Shown here piece after piece: positions 4,321-44,327 of a stretch of DNA of 60,408 nt. Made by a program: the position numbers and the translations under genes. A model generated the notes under the pieces. That model saw only the letters and a list, made by a program, of their open reading frames with translations. It made no database searches and had not been told where the DNA came from. Within the stretch, counting starts at the first letter, position 1. Each line of letters starts with the position of its first letter. The DNA is taken from positions 1 through 60,408 of IMG/VR virus record IMGVR_UViG_3300006198_000003. One strand, given 5' to 3'. The stretch is from a virus.

Positions 4321-6060
4321 ACCTTAATCCGTGAAACTCAAACTTGTTAAATGCCTGAAAAGTCTGCGATTATGCAGTTTTGAAGAGCCAAACCAGCACC
4401 TTAAAATTCACCCATTTGGTGCGGCAAAATGGCTTAATTTTCCCACTTTTGCATTATTTTCTGGTATAATAGGGACAGCAGAAATCATAACGCGGGGGGC
4501 GGACACCAATGAAAAATATTAAGATCGAATTCACCAATGAGCGTATTATCCCGGCTTCAGGACTGGCAGTCGTAGGTGCCATCCTGGGCAAGAGCGATTT
4601 CGTAAAACGCTGCAACCGTATGGATGTCACAAAGAACCGTTCACAGCACCAGATTAAAAATGGTGACATCCTCCTTACATATATCGGTCTGCTGACTATG
4701 GGTAAACCTGCTTACGAGTCCGTCCATGAGTTTGATGATGACCAGGAGTTTTATAAGTATGCCCTTGGCATCACCAGGAGCATCCCTTCCGAGGAGACAT
4801 TACGCCAGCGGATGGATGACATTGGTGCTTCCCTGCGCCCCCAGATCCTTTCCGAGAACATAGAGATGCTCAGGACAAACGGTATTGTCCCGGGGAAGCT
4901 TCCAAACGGCTATGTTCCTGTGGATATTGATGTCACGCCTTTTGACAATTCAAAAACGCAGAAACAGGGAGTCTCGCGAACTTATAAAGGCTGCGACGGG
5001 TATGCGCCCATCATGGCATATATAGGAACCGAAGGCTACCTCATCAACTGTGAGCTGCGCGAGGGGAAGCAGCACTGCCAGAAGCATACACCGGAATTTT
5101 TGCGTGAAACGATACGTTTATGCCGCGAGATCACAAATGAACCTCTCCTTGTACGCCTAGACTCCGGGAACGATGCCGCGGAAAACATCGGCATACTGAT
5201 TGAAGCCGGATGCTGTTTCATCATAAAGCGGAACCTCCGCAGGGAAAGCAGGGAGGAATGGCTTTCCATGGCGGAATCCTGCAGCAAGGATGTCCAGACC
5301 CCCCGGGACGGCAAGACTGTCTATATAGGAAGCGACTGGAAGCCCGTCACATATAAAACACAATCCGGGGAAGAGAAAACCATTACCATCCGGACAGGAT
5401 ATGAGATTATCAACCGTACAATAGACAAGTATGGACAGTTTCTATTTCCAAATGACATCGAAGCCAACACCTGGTGGACCAACCTGGGGATGAACGACCA
5501 TGAGATCATCAGCCTGTACCATGCACATGGAGAATGCGAGCAGTTCCACAGTGAAATAAAAACAGACATGGACCTGGAACGTCTGCCGTCCGGTAAATTT
5601 GACACAAATGAGCTGGTGCTGGAGCTTGCTATAATTGCATACAATATCCTGCGCATGATAGGGCAGGAGTCCATAGGCCGCCGGGGGACGGAAACCAGAC
5701 ACAAGGTAAGGCGCCGTCGGCTGCGCACCGTGATCGGGAACATGATCATGATGGCGGGCCATGTGACAGAGCATGCCCGCCAGCTGATCATAGGGCTGGG
5801 CCGGAGCAACGTGTGGCGCTATGCATTCCAGGGAATATATACTGCATTTGCGGATTTCTATGCATAAATAAGCCTTCATACAGAAAACTTCCTGCATATA
5901 GGGGGAGTAGTGCGCCCATTTATAGGAAGATGGATAAGATTTAGCAGTATATTTCCACATTTATGCAGATTGATTCAACATTATCAAGGTACACTTTTTA
6001 CTTTTTGCCAATCTGATTGTAGATTGGCATATAAAAACAATGAGTTTCACGGATTCAGGT
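4321..6060 (+). mobile_element. IS1380-family insertion sequence (1740 bp)
   Basis: Terminal inverted repeats 4321-4340 / 6041-6060 match 19/20. 4-bp direct repeat GTTT at 4317-4320 and 6061-6064. Single DDE transposase ORF. By eye, GC content is higher than in the flanks. Confidence 0.9.
4509..5867 (+). CDS. IS1380-family DDE transposase
   Basis: N-terminus MKNIKIEFTNERIIPASGLAVVG, VRLDSGNDAAEN, YHAHGECEQFHSEIKTDMDLERLPSGKF...AYNILRMIG. Confidence 0.9.
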   Translation: MKNIKIEFTNERIIPASGLAVVGAILGKSDFVKRCNRMDVTKNRSQHQIKNGDILLTYIGLLTMGKPAYESVHEFDDDQEFYKYALGITRSIPSEETLRQRMDDIGASLRPQILSENIEMLRTNGIVPGKLPNGYVPVDIDVTPFDNSKTQKQGVSRTYKGCDGYAPIMAYIGTEGYLINCELREGKQHCQKHTPEFLRETIRLCREITNEPLLVRLDSGNDAAENIGILIEAGCCFIIKRNLRRESREEWLSMAESCSKDVQTPRDGKTVYIGSDWKPVTYKTQSGEEKTITIRTGYEIINRTIDKYGQFLFPNDIEANTWWTNLGMNDHEIISLYHAHGECEQFHSEIKTDMDLERLPSGKFDTNELVLELAIIAYNILRMIGQESIGRRGTETRHKVRRRRLRTVIGNMIMMAGHVTEHARQLIIGLGRSNVWRYAFQGIYTAFADFYA

Positions 6061-8600: not shown

Positions 8601-8915
8601 ATGGCTTGGTATGCGGAGTTAAAGCGTAGAAAGTGGTATTGTATCAATGGTATTGATATGATACACGCTTACAAGAAAAAGCTGTATGATGATTGGTACA
8701 ACTCTCTGACAGACGAGCAGAAACAGCGATTAGAGGAATACAGAAAAGAAAAGGCGGAGAAAAACCGAAGGGAAGCACGAGAAGCCATGCAAAGATTGTT
8801 GATGATGACTGGATTAGTCGCAGAAAAGTATTATTCGGTGTGCGGAGAATCTTCCTTTCTTGCCGTTGAAAATTCTTTAGGGGGTTGCCGTGCTATCACC
8901 AGATTACTTCAATAA
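8601..8915 (+). CDS. hypothetical protein
   Basis: 104-aa ORF in the head module, coiled-coil/charged. Confidence 0.45.
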   Translation: MAWYAELKRRKWYCINGIDMIHAYKKKLYDDWYNSLTDEQKQRLEEYRKEKAEKNRREAREAMQRLLMMTGLVAEKYYSVCGESSFLAVENSLGGCRAITRLLQ

Positions 8916-10611
8916 CATAGATGACCGCCTACTTGAATTATACCGCCAGTTAGAGGACTTCATTCTCAAAGACATCACCCGCCGCCTACTCTCCGCCGGA
9001 GAAATGACCGCAACCGCCGACCGACTTATTTGGAAGTTGAAGCAGATGGGAGAGAGCCAAGCGGCGATTGAACAGAAATTACAAAAGCTAACAGGACTGA
9101 CAAGAAAAGAACTCCGCTCCCTCCTGCAAGATGCCGTTCTGACCTCATGGGAGGACGATAGAGCGACTTTAGGGCAGTTGGGTATAGAATTATCCAATCC
9201 GCTCAAAAATGCCGCTGTAATCCGTGTTATGGACGCAGAATATAAGAAAAGCCTTGGAGAACTGACGAACCTCACACGCACAACTATGAAGCAAAGTCAG
9301 ATTGACCTTATCAATATGCTTGACGAAGCTGATTTGAGGGTGGCGGCAGGAGTGCAAAGCTATTCAGCGGCGGTGTGTGATATTTTGGATAGGTATGCTG
9401 GACGGGGAATCTATGTGGACTATCCGAGCGGCGCAAGACGCACATTGGAATCGGCGGTTAGATTGTGCGTTGTCACATCAATGAATCAGACGGCGGCGCA
9501 AGTGACGAATCAGTACATAGTTGAGGGTGGAATTGAGTATGTCCTTGTATCGGCTCATTTAGGGGCGAGAGTGGCGCAGAAAGGACAGCCGCAAGAAGCG
9601 GACCATTCAGCATGGCAAGGGAGAGTCTATAAAATCCGAGGGACCACACCGGAATACCCTAATTTACTGGACCGGACCGGCTATGATGTGGACCCGAACA
9701 CTGGACAAGGGACCGTTAAAAATCCGCTGGGCCTGCACGGGTACAACTGCCGACACTCACATAAACCGTGGGACCCACGTTTGCGCAATCCATATGTTGA
9801 TGAAAATGGAAATCTGAAAATAGACAGTGAGGAGAACAGAAAACGCTACGAGCTTCAGCAGAAACAGCGTGCTATGGAACGGAGCCTGCGGGCATGGAAA
9901 CGAAAGTTGATTGAAAAGCAGGAGCAAATCAACAATCCCCGTGAAGATATGGACGTTTCCAAGCTGCAACAAGAATATGACCGCATGGCCTACCAACTGA
10001 CACAGAAAAATAAGGCGTACAACGATTTCTGCAAACAGAATGATTTGCAGCCGCAGTATGACCGCATAAAGGTAGCTGATTTCGGCAGGGAGCAGACAAA
10101 GCGGAGTAATGCAGGGGCAAAAAGGTATAAAAGTATTGAAAATTCTGCGGATTCTGATACAATAAAGGCAGGAGTTAAAAGTGGCGCCCTAACAAGCAAA
10201 AATGACCCTGATTTTAAGAAACGTGATTCATTTGCGGAAATGTATTATCGTGAAGTTCTTGGAAGAAAACGCGAGTATGAAATAAAAGCTGTGGCAAAGA
10301 ACAGCGGCTTTTCAGCAGAAGATATAGACAAAGTATTCTCCCACGTTTTTGAGAAGAAGCATCTATTTTCTGATGGAACAATACATAAGTTTTCCCCGGA
10401 CTATGATATGGCGCAGTCATGGATTCGATTGAGAGAGGGGAAACGTATTCAGGAGCATGACATCATTCTTTTGAATCATGAATTGATGGAAGCGAATATA
10501 ATGGGAAAAGGAACGGGCATTCCTTATGAAACAGCCCATGAAGAAGCGCAGAAACAGTATAATTATGCTGCAGCTCTTAAAAAATATCTGAAAGAAAATA
10601 ATTTGGAGTGA
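8890..10611 (+). CDS. MuF/SPP1 gp7-like head morphogenesis protein with C-terminal extension
   Basis: N-terminus MLSPDYFNNIDDRLLELYRQLEDFILKDITRRL (minor capsid protein 2 type) and GYNCRHSHKPW (MuF signature); about 190 extra C-terminal residues. Confidence 0.85.
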   Translation: MLSPDYFNNIDDRLLELYRQLEDFILKDITRRLLSAGEMTATADRLIWKLKQMGESQAAIEQKLQKLTGLTRKELRSLLQDAVLTSWEDDRATLGQLGIELSNPLKNAAVIRVMDAEYKKSLGELTNLTRTTMKQSQIDLINMLDEADLRVAAGVQSYSAAVCDILDRYAGRGIYVDYPSGARRTLESAVRLCVVTSMNQTAAQVTNQYIVEGGIEYVLVSAHLGARVAQKGQPQEADHSAWQGRVYKIRGTTPEYPNLLDRTGYDVDPNTGQGTVKNPLGLHGYNCRHSHKPWDPRLRNPYVDENGNLKIDSEENRKRYELQQKQRAMERSLRAWKRKLIEKQEQINNPREDMDVSKLQQEYDRMAYQLTQKNKAYNDFCKQNDLQPQYDRIKVADFGREQTKRSNAGAKRYKSIENSADSDTIKAGVKSGALTSKNDPDFKKRDSFAEMYYREVLGRKREYEIKAVAKNSGFSAEDIDKVFSHVFEKKHLFSDGTIHKFSPDYDMAQSWIRLREGKRIQEHDIILLNHELMEANIMGKGTGIPYETAHEEAQKQYNYAAALKKYLKENNLE

Positions 10612-11963: not shown

Positions 11964-12362
11964 ATGAAAAAAGCATATCCAGTTATTCTGTCACAAGGAG
12001 AAAAATTTATCGTGGCATATGTGCCGGATTTTGAAATCAATACACAAGGTACAGATGTTGCAGATGCAATCGAAATGGCAAGGGACGCAATAGGGGTTGT
12101 CGGCATTGATATGGAAGATGATGGAGAATCCTTACCAGAACCAACAGCAATTTCAGATGTAAAGGCTGATTCGACGGCGGATATTGTAACACTTGTTGAT
12201 GTGGACTTCGGAGAGTATCGCAGAAAGAACGATATGAGGGCGGTCAAGAAAAACTGCACAATACCGTCATGGTTGAATTTTGAAGCTGAAAAGGCGGGGG
12301 TGAATTTTTCTGCAATATTGACGGCGGCACTCAAAAGCGAGTTGAAAATTCAAAGCAGATAA
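11964..12362 (+). CDS. hicB: HicB antitoxin
   Basis: YPVILSQGEKFIVAYVPDFEINTQGTDVADAIEMARDAIG, the HicB N-domain pattern, directly downstream of hicA. Confidence 0.85.
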   Translation: MKKAYPVILSQGEKFIVAYVPDFEINTQGTDVADAIEMARDAIGVVGIDMEDDGESLPEPTAISDVKADSTADIVTLVDVDFGEYRRKNDMRAVKKNCTIPSWLNFEAEKAGVNFSAILTAALKSELKIQSR

Positions 12363-12561: not shown

Positions 12562-12587
12562 GGGGCGGCAGTGATGCCGCTCTTTTT
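12562..12587 (+). terminator. rho-independent terminator
   Basis: GCGGCA-GTGA-TGCCGC followed by TCTTTTT. Confidence 0.7.
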
Positions 12588-12597
12588 GCGCTTAACT

Positions 12598-12631
12598 TTG
12601 GTACAAATAATTTTTGAAGCTGTGGTATGAT
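12598..12631 (+). promoter_or_regulatory. Conserved promoter-like motif copy P3
   Basis: TTGGTA 12598-12603, 22-nt spacer, TGG-TATGAT 12626-12631. Confidence 0.55.
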
Positions 12632-12637
12632 GTAATC

Positions 12638-13240
12638 ACTCCGTACAAGATGAATGAACTTTCTGGATTGTTCTGTTTTACAGGATATGAAATTAGGGAA
12701 CGCGTCTTCGGAACCTGCACAGTCCTTGCAGACAGAAAATGGACATTGATCAGAATGCCGTTTGAAGTGGAGGGAACGCACGCCGCGTGATGGGCGGGTG
12801 TATGATTGTGAGTTTGGGAGCCAAAATAGCTTCGTGGGTTTTAACAATCAAAAATTAGAAGGAGGATACGGCCATGAAGAAGCGATGTTACAACCATGCT
12901 AACGTGATGGAAAATTTTGAAATCTGATCCGGCTGCGGCCCGTGGCGAATGAATCGCCAAACGTGGCATCATGTGAGATGAATCGCGGCTTTAAGAACAC
13001 GTTAAACTATGTAAGACCGCACTGCACAGCCCTTGCAGACATAAAATGGACAATCTACCTGAAGGAGACTTGAAGTCCTGCAATGCTATATAGTTTCCAA
13101 AAAACTTTATCTGTAATAGATGAGACTAGCCAGTGATTGCAGTAGTCTGGCAGTTACAGATAGTGCGCTGGAAGTGATGATCAGATTGTGAGCGTAGCGA
13201 AGCAATAATCAATCGAGGTAGTTTATAAGGCGCATATGGT
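12638..13240 (+). ncRNA. candidate large structured noncoding RNA (ROOL/GOLLD-like context; class unverified)
   Basis: No credible ORF; promoter motif upstream; runs into a tRNA-like element. Hand-verified nested helices at 13111-13159; 31-nt internal repeat at 12715 and 13022. Confidence 0.4.
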
Positions 13241-13316
13241 GGAAAGTTGTGTTATCTGGCGTGAAACTGCCGGGAGGCTAGCACCGGCGAGATAGGTTCG
13301 ATTCCTATACTTTCCA
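13241..13316 (+). ncRNA. tRNA-like element TL1 (10-nt anticodon-position loop)
   Basis: Acceptor GGAAAGT/ACTTTCC 7/7; T arm ATAGG-TTCGATT-CCTAT. Stem GCCGG/CCGGC closes the loop GAGGCTAGCA; weak 3-bp D stem. Confidence 0.55.
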
Positions 13317-13416
13317 TGCCTGGGAAGATACCACAAGAGAACTGGGTGTTGCAATCCGTCAAGAACGGTAAACGCAGGGGAGGTATCATTGGGGCGAGTG
13401 GTTATCGCTTCAAAAG

Positions 13417-13530
13417 CGGATAGTAGCTTAATGGTAGAGCCGGAGTAGGGGGCAATCCGAAACGAAAAGGAGTGCAAATATCCGTGGCTATAGTGTGCCT
13501 AATATGCAGGTTCGATTCCTGCCTATCCAT
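13417..13530 (+). ncRNA. tRNA-like element TL2 (114 nt, oversized anticodon/variable region)
   Basis: Acceptor CGGATAG/CTATCCA (C1-A72 mismatch), D arm GCTT-AATGGTA-GAGC, T arm GCAGG-TTCGATT-CCTGC; 72 nt lie between the D and T arms. Confidence 0.55.
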
Positions 13531-13587
13531 TTAACTCTGATAGGGGAGTTTTCTCTTGTCGGAAACCGCAAAAGGGAGGATATGAGA

Positions 13588-13869: not shown

Positions 13870-13883
13870 TTTTAGCCTTTAAC

Positions 13884-13917
13884 TTGGTACAACAATCTCA
13901 CCAAACTGCGGTACAAT
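13884..13917 (+). promoter_or_regulatory. Conserved promoter-like motif copy P4
   Basis: TTGGTA 13884-13889, 22-nt spacer, TACAAT 13912-13917. Confidence 0.55.
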
Positions 13918-14979: not shown

Positions 14980-15006
14980 TTGACATTATCTAATTTTTGA
15001 TAAATT
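14980..15006 (+). promoter_or_regulatory. sigma-A type promoter with extended -10 upstream of the tRNA-like cluster
   Basis: TTGACA 14980-14985, 15-nt spacer, TGaTAAATT 14998-15006. Confidence 0.5.
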
Positions 15007-15011
15007 TCCTA

Positions 15012-15030
15012 ACCCTCCTTTCAAGAGGGT
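15012..15030 (+). other. stand-alone anticodon-arm-like hairpin (loop CTTTCAA)
   Basis: ACCCTC/GAGGGT 6-bp stem and a 7-nt loop with U at position 2 and A at position 6; central triplet TTC. Confidence 0.5.
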
Positions 15031-15081
15031 GCATCCGTCAGTAATGGTGCTGTAAAGGCGGTTCGATTCCGCACTGGTGCA
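15031..15081 (+). ncRNA. tRNA-like element TL3 (51 nt, no anticodon arm)
   Basis: Acceptor GCATCCG/CTGGTGC (6/7 pairs), D-like hairpin CAG-TAATGGTG-CTG, T arm GGCGG-TTCGATT-CCGCA; nothing lies between the D and T arms. Confidence 0.45.
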
Positions 15082-15144
15082 TTTGGGGAGAAATCCCCAC
15101 ATTTCCCTATCAAGCGTCTGCCCCTTGTGGGTGGGCGCACTCCT

Positions 15145-15218
15145 GGGAGATTAAAGATAACTGGAAATCGCCTAGACTCCAAATCTACGGTACGAGGGTT
15201 CGATTCCTTCATCTCCTG
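15145..15218 (+). tRNA. tRNA-Trp (anticodon CCA), imperfect
   Basis: Acceptor GGGAGAT/ATCTCCT, anticodon arm CTAGA-CTCCAAA-TCTAC (C-C at 27-43), T arm GAGGG-TTCGATT-CCTTC, 3-bp D stem, one extra nt after the acceptor. Confidence 0.6.
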
Positions 15219-15237
15219 TTTGGCAGACGTGCCAAGT

Positions 15238-15354
15238 TCTTCATATCTGGTTCAAATCCAGTCGCCTTGATAGAAAAATCGTGATGCGCAGCGAAAGTAT
15301 CTTGAAAAGGTAGGGGCGTTGGCAGTAAGCGCGGTTCGATTCCGCTGTGAAGAA
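15238..15354 (+). ncRNA. tRNA-like element TL5 (117 nt, large internal insertion)
   Basis: Acceptor TCTTCAT/GTGAAGA 7/7 (one G-U), hairpin CTGG-TTCAAAT-CCAG at the D position, T arm CGCGG-TTCGATT-CCGCT; 69-nt middle with helix CGCCTT/GGGGCG. Confidence 0.5.
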
Positions 15355-15433
15355 TTACCCCGGCAGAGGTTCATCTGCCTAAATCCATACAGCGGACACG
15401 CTGTTAAAAACCATGTTAGGAGGATAACGAAAC

Positions 15434-16042
15434 ATGAAAAACATTGAACAGATTTTGAAAGAAGCAGGAATTGAGGTTACGGACGAGCAGAAAGCGGCGG
15501 TCAATGCTGCGGTGACGGAGAACTACAAGACCATTGCAGAGTTTGACAAGCAGGCTAAAAAGCTGACAGCAGCAGAAGCAGACCGGGACAATTACAAAGG
15601 GCAGCTTGACACAGCAAACGAAACCTTGGAGAAATTCAAGGACATTGACCCGGAGAAACAAGCAGAGGAAATCCAGAAGTATAAGCAGGCGGCGAAAGAA
15701 GCGCAGGACATGGCTACGAAGCAGATTCTGGAACGTGACCAGCGGGATTACCTCAAAGGCGAGTTTGACAAGCTGAAAATCGAATCGGGACGTGTCAGGG
15801 ATTCGCTCATGCGTGAAATCATGGGCGAGGACGGCTTGAAATGGAAGGACGGCGCATTTATGGGGCTGTCGGACTATCTGGCGAAGGAGAATGAAAAAGA
15901 CCACTTCTATCAGACCGAAGCTGAAAAAGCAGAAGCCGAAGCCAAAGAGAAAGCCGCCGGCAGTGCGCCGAAGTTTACGGACAAGTCCGAGCCGAAGCAG
16001 GCCCCGGCGAAAGATACCAGTCCGGCTCCTGTGATTTTCTAA
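15434..16042 (+). CDS. capsid scaffolding protein
   Basis: MKNIEQILKEAGIEVTDEQKAAVNAAVTENYKTIAEFDK, coiled-coil and charged, directly upstream of the major capsid gene. Confidence 0.85.
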   Translation: MKNIEQILKEAGIEVTDEQKAAVNAAVTENYKTIAEFDKQAKKLTAAEADRDNYKGQLDTANETLEKFKDIDPEKQAEEIQKYKQAAKEAQDMATKQILERDQRDYLKGEFDKLKIESGRVRDSLMREIMGEDGLKWKDGAFMGLSDYLAKENEKDHFYQTEAEKAEAEAKEKAAGSAPKFTDKSEPKQAPAKDTSPAPVIF

Positions 16043-17144: not shown

Positions 17145-17711
17145 ATGAAATTATTTTTTGATACAGAATTTACCGGACTGCACAAGAGAACTTCTCTTAT
17201 CAGTATCGGGATTGTTACGGAGAATGGTAAGCGGTTCTATGCGGAGTTTTCCACATACAAAGAAAACCAGTGTGACGATTGGATAAGGGAAAATGTTTTG
17301 AAGCACACCATTATTTCCGGAAATGATACCCTTGCCGCAAGGCTTGGAGAGGACAGCAACACAACGGTTGTTCTTGGCAGTAAAGCGGATATTCGGTATG
17401 AGTTGGGCGAGTGGCTGAAACAGTTCGACAGCGTTCAGTTCGTGTCCGATGTAAGCCATTATGACTTTATTCTGCTGATTGATATTTTCGGCACAGCGTT
17501 TGACTTGCCGGGGAATGTGTCGGCGGCTTGCCACGACATCAATCAGGACATTTCAAGACATTATGGAATTTCCGAAAGAGAAGCCTTTGATAAGAGCAGG
17601 GAGGACATTGTTTCCGAACTTTGCGGACAGCAGATTGAGGGAGAGAAACACAACGCCCTTTATGACGCAGAAGTTATCAAGGCTATCTATGCGGAAGTAT
17701 GCAAGGGGTAG
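17145..17711 (+). CDS. DEDDh 3'-5' exonuclease (DnaQ/Rv2179c-like)
   Basis: MKLFFDTEFTGL (Exo I DxE), HYDFILL, HNALYDAEV (Exo III HxxxD). Confidence 0.8.
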   Translation: MKLFFDTEFTGLHKRTSLISIGIVTENGKRFYAEFSTYKENQCDDWIRENVLKHTIISGNDTLAARLGEDSNTTVVLGSKADIRYELGEWLKQFDSVQFVSDVSHYDFILLIDIFGTAFDLPGNVSAACHDINQDISRHYGISEREAFDKSREDIVSELCGQQIEGEKHNALYDAEVIKAIYAEVCKG

Positions 17712-43114: not shown

Positions 43115-43158
43115 TAATATCGCAAAATGGCTCATTTATCGCATTTATTGGCATTAAA

Positions 43159-43186
43159 CAATCAGGTTCGAATCCTGTCACCCCGA
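43159..43186 (+). other. attP core: 3' fragment of a tRNA gene
   Basis: CAGG-TTCGAAT-CCTG T-arm followed by acceptor strand CACCCCGA; no matching 5' half upstream. Confidence 0.65.
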
Positions 43187-43198
43187 TTGATGTATTAT

Positions 43199-43249
43199 AG
43201 CCGCAAATCCGGGAGTTGTTCAGTAAAATCAAGGGTTTGCGGCTTTTTC
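43199..43249 (+). terminator. terminator following the tRNA fragment
   Basis: AGCCGCAAA / TTTGCGGCT 9-bp stem followed by TTTTC. Confidence 0.55.
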
Positions 43250-43304
43250 TATGTCCGAATTTATAAGCTTAAATTATGCCCGATAAGTGCAATTTATAAT
43301 ATTT

Positions 43305-43323
43305 TTTGTCCAGATTTTGTCCA
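43305..43323 (+). repeat. integrase arm-type site pair (TTTGTCCA x2)
   Basis: TTTGTCCA at 43305-43312 and 43316-43323, next to the integrase stop. Confidence 0.6.
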
Positions 43324-43331
43324 AGCTTGCC

Positions 43332-44327
43332 CTAATTAAAGAGGGCGTTCCGCAGCTTGTCGGCAGCGTCCCTCTTAGCCTTTTCCTCTTTCTCCATCAT
43401 GGAGTGCCGGTATACGGATTTCATCACATGGTCCGTCTCCCAACCGCCCATTTTAAGGATATCCGCCTCCGGTATCCCCATGGCTGACATTTGGCTTGCA
43501 AAGTAATGCCGGAGCTTGTGGAGCGGAAAGCGCGGGATCCCTAGCCTTTCCTCGACTTTCTCTAGGTGCTTTGTTATGCTGCCAGGGTGTCCCTTGTACA
43601 CATACCCCTGCTCACGTATTTGTTCGGACAGTGCTTCAGGTATGATGATGCTCCGAGTACTTTCAGTGGTCTTTGTAGTTTTGACTACCCACTCTTTCTT
43701 TGCGTTTTGCACCATGGCCTTGCTGATATGTGCGATATCCCCGTCAATATCTTCCGGTTGCAGCGCGCATATCTCTGATCGGCGCATTCCATAGCAGGCC
43801 AGAGTAATCGGAACCTCAAACGGTGTGTCCTTTACTTCTGCCAGTATCCTCTTTACATCCTCCTGAGAGGGCGTGTAAGGCTCAGATTTGACCTTTTGAG
43901 GGAGTGTGGTACTGACTTTAAGGTTCGGGCAAAAAGTCCCCAGAACAGCCGTCAAAAAGCCGTGGTAGTTGCGCACGGTCTTTGGGGACTTGCCTTTTGA
44001 TATCTCATTGACCAGCTTGTTGATTTCTATTTGTGTGATATCAGATACCGGGAGTTTCCGGAACCATTCAGGGAAGCGGTTCACATTTTCGAAGTATTCT
44101 TTTATCGTCCTGGGGGACAGGACATTTCTTTTCATGTCCACATAGCTTTCGGCAGCACGCTGGAATGTCATCTGGGTATTTGCATTCCTTATCCGTTCTA
44201 ATTCCTTCGCCATGGCAGTTATGGCCTCTTTCTGCGTGGGCTTATAATCAAAAGTCACGGTATAAATCTGCCCCTTGTACATTTTTCTGACCCGGTAGCT
44301 GTCAGGCCCTCTCTTTTCAATCTTCAT
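43332..44327 (-). CDS. int: tyrosine site-specific integrase
   Basis: ACYGMRRSE...LHKLRHYFASQM...GGWETDHVMKSVYRH gives the R...HxxR...Y catalytic pattern. SAM-like N-terminal domain. Confidence 0.95.
   Translation of the reverse strand: MKIEKRGPDSYRVRKMYKGQIYTVTFDYKPTQKEAITAMAKELERIRNANTQMTFQRAAESYVDMKRNVLSPRTIKEYFENVNRFPEWFRKLPVSDITQIEINKLVNEISKGKSPKTVRNYHGFLTAVLGTFCPNLKVSTTLPQKVKSEPYTPSQEDVKRILAEVKDTPFEVPITLACYGMRRSEICALQPEDIDGDIAHISKAMVQNAKKEWVVKTTKTTESTRSIIIPEALSEQIREQGYVYKGHPGSITKHLEKVEERLGIPRFPLHKLRHYFASQMSAMGIPEADILKMGGWETDHVMKSVYRHSMMEKEEKAKRDAADKLRNALFN

Follow-up and report, generated by a model that had tools for sequence, protein, structure and literature searches.

What are tRNA-shaped sequences without a usable anticodon loop doing among the head genes of a phage? 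The question is raised by two elements, here called TL1 (76 nt; 13241–13316, plus strand) and TL2 (114 nt; 13417–13530, plus strand), in the viral record IMGVR_UViG_3300006198_000003 of IMG/VR, which was analysed over its positions 1 to 60,408 (hereafter, the window). The window represents a temperate phage or prophage of siphovirus type, from Lachnospiraceae, and both elements sit in an RNA island of about 1 kb (~12594–13581) inside its head-gene module. On balance, if by no great measure, we favor the view that both are tRNA-like modules, conserved but non-decoding, whose role is to act as processing punctuation for RNase P/RNase Z and as a stable chassis for a conserved insert.

The tRNA-like elements of the window are real and exceed chance expectation. 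A strict scan, which required a perfect T arm and an acceptor stem with at least six of seven pairs, returned exactly three sites, all on the plus strand and within 2 kb: TL1, TL2, and a third element, TL3, that was absent from the initial annotation of this DNA. Across 200 dinucleotide shuffles of the window the same scan averaged 0.36 sites, and three sites were reached in a single shuffle. ARAGORN, run over the window at default and at relaxed or lowered thresholds as well as in intron mode, reported no tRNA or tmRNA anywhere at its default setting. The Rfam tRNA covariance model (gathering score, 29 bits) scored TL1 at 33.0 bits, with one surplus loop nucleotide, and TL2 at 38.6 bits, with a reported insertion of 61 nt. 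The initial annotation had allowed that standard tools might fold both elements as ordinary tRNAs with 7-nt anticodon loops; neither ARAGORN, at default or relaxed thresholds, nor the Rfam model did so.

Re-reading the sequence bore out most of the initial description. In TL1, the acceptor stem GGAAAGT/ACTTTCC is paired at all seven positions, the T arm (ATAGG-TTCGATT-CCTAT) is perfect and canonical, and the D arm carries GG within its loop. The stem GCCGG/CCGGC at the anticodon position closes GAGGCTAGCA, with CTA inside the loop as first described; this loop (GAGGCUAGCA) spans 8–10 nt and has no U33. An alternative drawing, obtained from relaxed ARAGORN, has four pairs and a G.A mismatch around an 8-nt loop with the “anticodon” gcta. 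For TL2, the acceptor CGGATAG/CTATCCA with its C1.A72 mismatch, the D arm (GCTT-AATGGTA-GAGC), and the T arm (GCAGG-TTCGATT-CCTGC) were likewise as reported, both arms being canonical, but the interval between them is 65 nt long (13441–13505) rather than the 72 nt originally counted. Within this interval are the conserved insert (CCGAAACGAAAAGGAG), a hairpin of GGAG/CUCC that closes the loop YGCAAAU, and a variable hairpin (GGC/GCC). Both elements, then, have the body of a canonical tRNA (7-bp acceptor stem, 5-bp T stem with a UUCRANY loop, and G18G19), and both lack its anticodon arm (5-bp stem, 7-nt loop, U33, and a purine at position 37).

TL1 and TL2 are probably not able to decode. The opposing explanation, that they are working tRNAs, would make TL1 a suppressor of amber or quadruplet (UAGC) type whose loop is expanded, and TL2 a class-II-like tRNA(CAA) with an insertion. 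Several observations lend it some color: the four-base anticodon that relaxed ARAGORN assigns to TL1; a yeast mitochondrial tRNA-Thr that decodes with an 8-nt anticodon loop (PMC7609411); the 4-bp GGAG/CUCC hairpin with its 7-nt loop YGCAAAU, found at the anticodon-arm position in eight of ten TL2 variants; and the known occurrence of irregular tRNAs near toxin–antitoxin genes (PMC5389517), a HicB-like protein being encoded just upstream here (11964–12359). We nevertheless regard it as very unlikely. Position 33 is G, not U, for both candidate anticodons, and a G.A mismatch closes the TL1 stem. The best 7-nt loop of TL2, YGCAAAU, sits behind a 27-nt insertion at the junction of the D and anticodon arms, and in the window copy A13480 weakens or disrupts its hairpin. 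Many sibling tRNA-like elements of the islands have no anticodon-like loop of any kind. The initial annotation had also suggested unusual suppressors, an idea that for TL1 found no support. TAG is an ordinary stop here, ending 17 of the 67 long plus-strand reading frames, and where TAG seems to be “read through”, a neighboring gene begins at a start codon of its own; no interrupted gene requiring read-through of TAG or a +1 shift at TAGC/UAGC was found in the window, and the CUA triplet has G, not U, as its 5' neighbor within the 8–10-nt loop. We therefore rejected an amber or quadruplet suppressor as a need of this phage.

Other identities, too, failed on at least one defining feature, as did the canonical and suppressor tRNA; these were initiator tRNA and tmRNA and, for the RNA upstream of TL1 (below), GOLLD/ROOL and RNase P RNA. 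The C1.A72 mismatch of TL2, noted at first as a hallmark of bacterial initiator tRNA, is present in only two of ten variants (the window and L021), the other eight having U1-A72; there is no CAU in any candidate loop, and the stem is GGAG/CUCC. A tRNA with an intron was proposed by ARAGORN only in intron mode at lowered thresholds, with a 3-nt “intron” in TL1 and a 24-nt “intron” in TL2 (as tRNA-Cys). We rejected this reading because the bacterial tRNA introns known to us belong to group I and are far larger, and because the flanks leave no standard loop. As a tmRNA, TL2 drew only a “permuted” ARAGORN call at the 80% threshold, with the tag unidentified; it has G3-C70 at the site of the tmRNA G3.U70 feature, and the GUG that might serve as its start is absent from L153. 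A hammerhead-like core was dismissed as well: CGAAAC is present in TL2, its CUGANGA counterpart is missing, and Rfam gave no match. The TL2 insert (13444–13479) shows a weak likeness to the unpaired part of the dnaX frameshift element, which at 11 bits (E=1.4 in a 73-nt search) was taken as chance.

Conservation among relatives bears on whether these are relics. Related sequences came from gut viromes and from metagenome-assembled genomes (MAGs) of Acetatifactor, Lachnospiraceae, Faecalimonas, and Eubacteriales, and loci are cited below by L number. Ten distinct TL2 variants, from viromes and metagenomes, were placed on the cloverleaf and compared with 500 shuffles. In this alignment, 97.9% of cells are paired and four pairs are altered on both sides (4-69 and 5-68 in the acceptor, 50-64 and 51-63 in the T stem), a level of pairing and covariation that none of the 500 shuffles reached. 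Within the L153/L163/L221 lineage all eight stem substitutions preserve pairing, as four double changes. At the TL2 position of L175 lies a variant with the same acceptor stem and a different D arm and insert. TL1 is found in five flanking contexts (the window, L021, L173/L185, L175, and L225, an Acetatifactor MAG) with just two substitutions among its copies, both converting G-C to G.U in the anticodon-position stem; its conservation ends at the element boundaries, and the flanks differ among contexts. A search for canonical relatives of TL1 by way of its D-arm sequence recovered solely the same four loci.

That the two elements are decaying, functionless pseudogenes left behind in a phage tRNA island is, on this evidence, highly improbable. 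Such debris does occur in the window, where degenerate T-arm fragments at 15060, 15249, and 15333 accompany the weak TL3, and the L205 copy of TL2 has G10A and C56U. Against this, TL1 stays near-identical in its five contexts despite differing flanks, the stem changes of TL2 are compensatory and its insert is near-invariant over the ten variants, and the nucleotides of the tertiary contacts are all retained in both. The contention of the initial annotation that these elements do not look like random decay is thus upheld by conserved homologs and compensatory changes.

The conserved part of TL2 lies in its insert. Across the ten variants it reads, nearly without variation, CCGAAACGAAAAGGAG(U/C)GCAAAU(C/A)UCCG, and it is rich in purines, with the Shine–Dalgarno-like motifs AGGGGG and AAGGAG and a GCAA-containing loop. 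The insert is more conserved than the stems that carry it, and it probably has a function of its own, exerted in trans. It can be drawn either as a 5-bp stem around 34 nt (fold A) or as the 27-nt insertion followed by the GGAG/CUCC hairpin (fold B). A further inner helix (GCA.UCC/GGA.UGC), predicted by minimum free energy, was discarded on finding it broken in the L162 and L153 variants.

An insert of this kind also admits the explanation that the elements are decoys or sponges, which would titrate factors acting on tRNA ends or the tRNA elbow, such as toxins that modify the acceptor end and tRNA nucleases, or whose purine-rich GGAG/AAGGAG inserts would bind the 16S anti-Shine–Dalgarno sequence or a GGA-binding regulator. 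An intact acceptor stem and elbow with a disabled anticodon would suit such a role, as would an insert conserved in sequence rather than in structure, the apparent recurrence of GGAG-type motifs in several sibling tRNA-likes, and the HicB-like antitoxin gene nearby. All of this is circumstantial, and we judge the decoy explanation to be quite unlikely.

We return to punctuation, on which the RNA upstream of TL1 bears. A conserved RNA of ~180 nt (13061–13237, plus strand), with helices P1–P4 and a pseudoknot, occurs in ~45 phage and prophage loci, which were gathered by pattern scans; the pattern GTGATTGCAGTANTC by itself gave matches that were mostly chance and one new member, L072. From an alignment of ten distinct versions RNAalifold predicted 33 pairs, 19 of them with compensatory changes, and the invariant loops CUGCAAU and AUUGCAG are mutually complementary. 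The nearest cultured relative is Blautia phage Montmirail, in which an unannotated stretch is 87% identical to window positions 13069–13176 and is followed by a normal tRNA-Asn. With no Rfam family matching at E<=10, the upstream RNA looks like an undescribed RNA family, usually with a tRNA next downstream. It is not GOLLD or ROOL, as no match to RF01998 or RF03087 was obtained in the window (E<=10) or in seven related loci (E<=1); a weak test, matching its motif strings to the stored portions of both families' alignments, likewise found none. A mini RNase P RNA was rejected on the lack of an Rfam match and a different pairing topology. The upstream RNA does not form the P4 pairing of bacterial RNase P RNA, between GAAAGUCC-type and GGCUUA-type regions: its GAAGUCCUGC segment lies in a hairpin loop, whose partner, if any, is AUUGCAG and not the 3' region.

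The P4 closing helix of the upstream RNA ends at ~13234, and TL1 begins 6 nt later, at 13241. In relatives, this slot is occupied by a canonical tRNA-Gln, Asn, Glu, Tyr, or Ile, or by other aberrant tRNA-likes, among them those of L002/L145, with a 6-nt loop, those of L003/L027, and an 87–89-nt element in L015/L020 in which two hairpins stand in place of the anticodon arm. Retention of the slot with a varying occupant fits a tRNA-shaped structure, or a terminator, that serves to end the upstream RNA. Downstream of TL1, a structured linker RNA of 100 nt (13317–13416, plus strand) shows three compensatory pairs relative to L175, with GAUAC/GUAUC becoming GAUGC/GCAUC and two U-A pairs becoming C-G.

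Since the upstream RNA, TL1, the linker, and TL2 are adjacent, and all are conserved or covarying, one might take TL1 and TL2 for unexcised domains of one large multi-domain RNA, whose tRNA bodies and GCAA-type loops would drive folding or multimer assembly; such an RNA would recall GOLLD RNAs with tRNAs in the linker. GCAA-containing loops do occur at the site of the anticodon loop both in TL2 and in the unrelated L154/L160 family. The modules, however, are reshuffled independently: TL1 occurs without the upstream RNA in L175 and L173, TL2 without the upstream RNA or TL1 in L162 and L163, and the upstream RNA with ordinary tRNAs or a terminator. GOLLD and ROOL, moreover, are unmatched even at E<=10, and we consider a single large RNA unlikely.

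Processing at tRNA-like boundaries, the reading that we prefer, draws on what the two bodies have kept. TL1 and TL2 retain U8, A14, G18G19, the UUCGAUU T loop, G53-C61, and the 12-bp acceptor/T stack; the stack, the elbow, and their associated contacts are the features recognized by RNase P, RNase Z, and the CCA-adding enzyme. A CCA end is encoded by none of the 23 canonical tRNAs and none of the 31 tRNA-like variants in the islands (0 of 54 together), and N74 is U in 21 and 24 of these, respectively (45 of 54). CCA-less ends with U74 match the Firmicute type of substrate of Bacillus subtilis RNase Z. As in processing elements of the t-element or mascRNA type, the tRNA-like fold adjoins the end of another RNA and offers no decoding-competent loop. 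The position of TL1, 6 nt past a covarying RNA, the occupants of the slot, and the CCA-less U74 ends are consistent with punctuation but leave it unproven.

From fold, conservation, covariation, and genomic context we infer the following course. A single long precursor would be made from the island's own promoter, in the order variable 5' part, ~180-nt pseudoknotted RNA, TL1, 100-nt linker, TL2, and lastly a small gene's mRNA. Because the tRNA-like bodies keep the 12-bp stack and the elbow, lack CCA, and carry U74, we propose that RNase P would cut at their 5' ends and RNase Z at their 3' ends, and the same retained contacts and CCA-less, U74-rich ends lead us to favor a polycistronic precursor cut at the tRNA-likes. 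Such cuts would fix where the upstream RNA ends, release the linker RNA, and generate the 5' terminus of the mRNA that follows. Once excised, the tRNA-like RNAs would be stable molecules of tRNA size in which the anticodon arm is exchanged for another module. In TL2, that module would be the conserved purine-rich insert, which may bind a protein, the ribosome, or another RNA in trans.

Several points weigh against this account. Cleavage by RNase P and RNase Z is argued from shape alone. A tRNA-like 3' neighbor is not obligatory for the upstream RNA, as the slot is taken by a terminator in L144, L226, and L223 and is empty in L010 and L018. All four double changes in TL2 stem from the one divergent lineage of L153, L163, and L221, and the substitutions G10A and C56U in L205 resemble decay. 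Folds A and B of the insert are indistinguishable because the nucleotides involved do not vary, and the structure of TL1 is backed mainly by invariance because that element barely varies. Finally, pure punctuation leaves unexplained why the TL2 insert should be conserved beyond its stems.

Known systems offer parallels to each part of this account. In the engineered “tRNA scaffold”, a cargo RNA replaces the anticodon arm, and the tRNA body gives processing and stability; that is a laboratory design, and TL2 would be a natural counterpart with a candidate cargo. At MALAT1, the tRNA-like mascRNA is cleaved by RNase P and RNase Z, setting the end of the neighboring RNA. Non-decoding tRNA-like folds in plant mitochondria, the t-elements, are reported to be cut by the same two enzymes and to define the ends of their neighbors (PMC1920247). 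Together with mitochondrial “tRNA punctuation”, the t-elements and mascRNA are the nearest functional analogs, being non-decoding tRNA-like folds beside other RNAs. They are organellar or nuclear, whereas TL1 and TL2 belong to a Firmicutes phage, where cleavage is proposed; the phage elements, furthermore, form several conserved families, and the TL2 insert suggests a role beyond being cut.

Closer to hand in context, GOLLD and ROOL are large, ornate RNAs of phages and prophages that usually lie beside tRNAs, and GOLLD, variable in its 5' part and conserved in its 3' part, sometimes has tRNAs within a linker (PMC12286853, PMC5737381). The likeness of the upstream RNA to these is one of context only, namely a phage or prophage location next to tRNAs; the conserved RNA here measures only ~180 nt, its neighbors include non-decoding tRNA-likes, and it lacks an Rfam match at E<=10. 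Phage T4 produces two small stable RNAs of unknown role, RNAC and RNAD, from its tRNA gene region (PMC3014915), which resemble TL1 and TL2 by context, in a host of a different phylum. Irregular tRNA polycistrons, allo-tRNAs, and the tRNA-Other of Bacillus cereus form clusters of non-standard, tRNA-shaped RNAs, often near toxin–antitoxin genes, and some irregular tRNAs may be regulatory rather than decoding (PMC5389517). These RNAs retain a 7-nt anticodon loop and depart from the norm in acceptor/T lengths (8/4, 9/3); in TL1 and TL2 the branch is the standard 7/5, and the departure lies in the anticodon region. Candidate structured RNAs with high expression have been reported from Blautia phages (PMC10690425) and may overlap this island.

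The locus is a compact case that can be compared over many genomes, with a covarying RNA at a tRNA slot and non-decoding tRNA bodies under selection. To our knowledge, the phage “tRNA islands” that contain GOLLD or ROOL have gone without an explained function for more than 15 years. Were RNase P and RNase Z indeed to cut the tRNA-likes, Firmicute phages would be using tRNA punctuation to mature non-coding RNAs, which would explain why such RNAs adjoin tRNAs; were the TL2 insert to have a trans function, nature would hold its own version of the engineered tRNA scaffold. The island inventory comprises at least 10 families of ARAGORN-negative tRNA-likes next to ordinary tRNAs. A broader proposal, which we offer as a speculation that is doubtful but worth stating, is that gut Lachnospiraceae phages carry an undescribed “tRNA-chassis” class of at least 10 families, with the anticodon arm swapped for other functional modules (in TL2, the insert with its Shine–Dalgarno-like motifs), that are co-expressed and co-processed with the ~180-nt RNA and whose action in trans would be directed at host translation or the tRNA machinery late in infection, as ribosome or regulator sponges or as decoys for tRNA-directed defenses. 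If that were true, GOLLD/ROOL-style phage tRNA islands would gain a testable function. Phage tRNA counts and anticodon inventories can in any case err, as tRNA finders miss such elements or call them tRNAs.

The remaining features of the island were read from the sequence. A terminator of the preceding unit (12562–12588, plus strand) is followed by a promoter-like element, AACTTTGGTACAA...GGTATGAT (12594–12631, plus strand), as is also the case ahead of the islands of L162, L173, and L175. The promoter-like element is repeated at 13881–13917, with the consensus AACTT(T)GGTACAA-N16-17-GGTAYNAT, and could be a promoter specific to the phage or a site for a regulator. TL2 is not separated by a terminator from the next open reading frame (ORF), which starts at 13582, ~50 nt past the 3' end of TL2. 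Over 12590–13581, the only credible ORF is a micro-ORF of 17 codons (MKKRCYNHANVMENFEI; 12874–12927) at the island start, with AGGAGG 7 nt upstream; its N-terminus is kept in L173 and the remainder varies, so that it could be a leader peptide or chance. A hairpin-plus-tail motif (CTGCACAGYCCTTGCAGACAKAAAATGGACA), present in the window as CTGCACAGCCCTTGCAGACATAAAATGGACA (13022–13052, plus strand) and in a second copy (12715–12745), recurs as a module boundary or leader. The element whose 5' end it directly adjoins is TL1 in L175, TL2 in L205, L214, and L218, and another tRNA-like element in L173; the motif may be a leader or a recombination junction.

TL3 (15146–15217, plus strand), the third site of the strict scan, is a degenerate Trp(CCA)-like tRNA that shares 82% identity with tRNA-Trp from Bacillus phage G; it scored 32.8 bits in the Rfam tRNA model and was called by ARAGORN only at a relaxed threshold. 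The three T-arm fragments mentioned above, seen as T-loop matches, surround it in a cluster at 15000–15350. A hairpin leader near TL3 (~15110–15145) is found in L175 before a 90-nt Tyr(GTA)-like tRNA. Such 90-nt “tRNA-Tyr(gta)” sequences, in L006, L012, and L175, have an unusual D region and a long variable arm, one being Sec-like in Rfam (30 bits), and may be non-canonical cloverleaf tRNAs.

Elsewhere in the window, genes were found for a minor head protein (8890–10608), a scaffolding protein (15434–16039), an RNase H-like protein (17145–17708), and a tyrosine integrase (43335–44327). A fragment from the 3' part of a tRNA, with its T arm and acceptor strand (43150–43185), adjoins the integrase gene and is probably the attachment site; TL1 and TL2 were rejected for that role, as the integrase and the fragment sit at 43150–44327 instead. 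A DDE transposase (Pfam DDE_Tnp_1_4; 4509–5864) amid phage genes probably marks an insertion sequence. In unrelated phages, including jumbo phages (L154/L160; L156/L158/L159; L151; L152; L155), we observed tRNA bodies with inserts of 50–75 nt; in L154/L160 a CGCAA loop replaces the anticodon loop and the stems covary, and some of these insert-bearing bodies encode a 3' CCA. Lastly, the leader of the scaffolding gene (15350–15433) contains two hairpins that covary with L163 (2430–2515) and may be a cis-regulatory 5' UTR (untranslated region).

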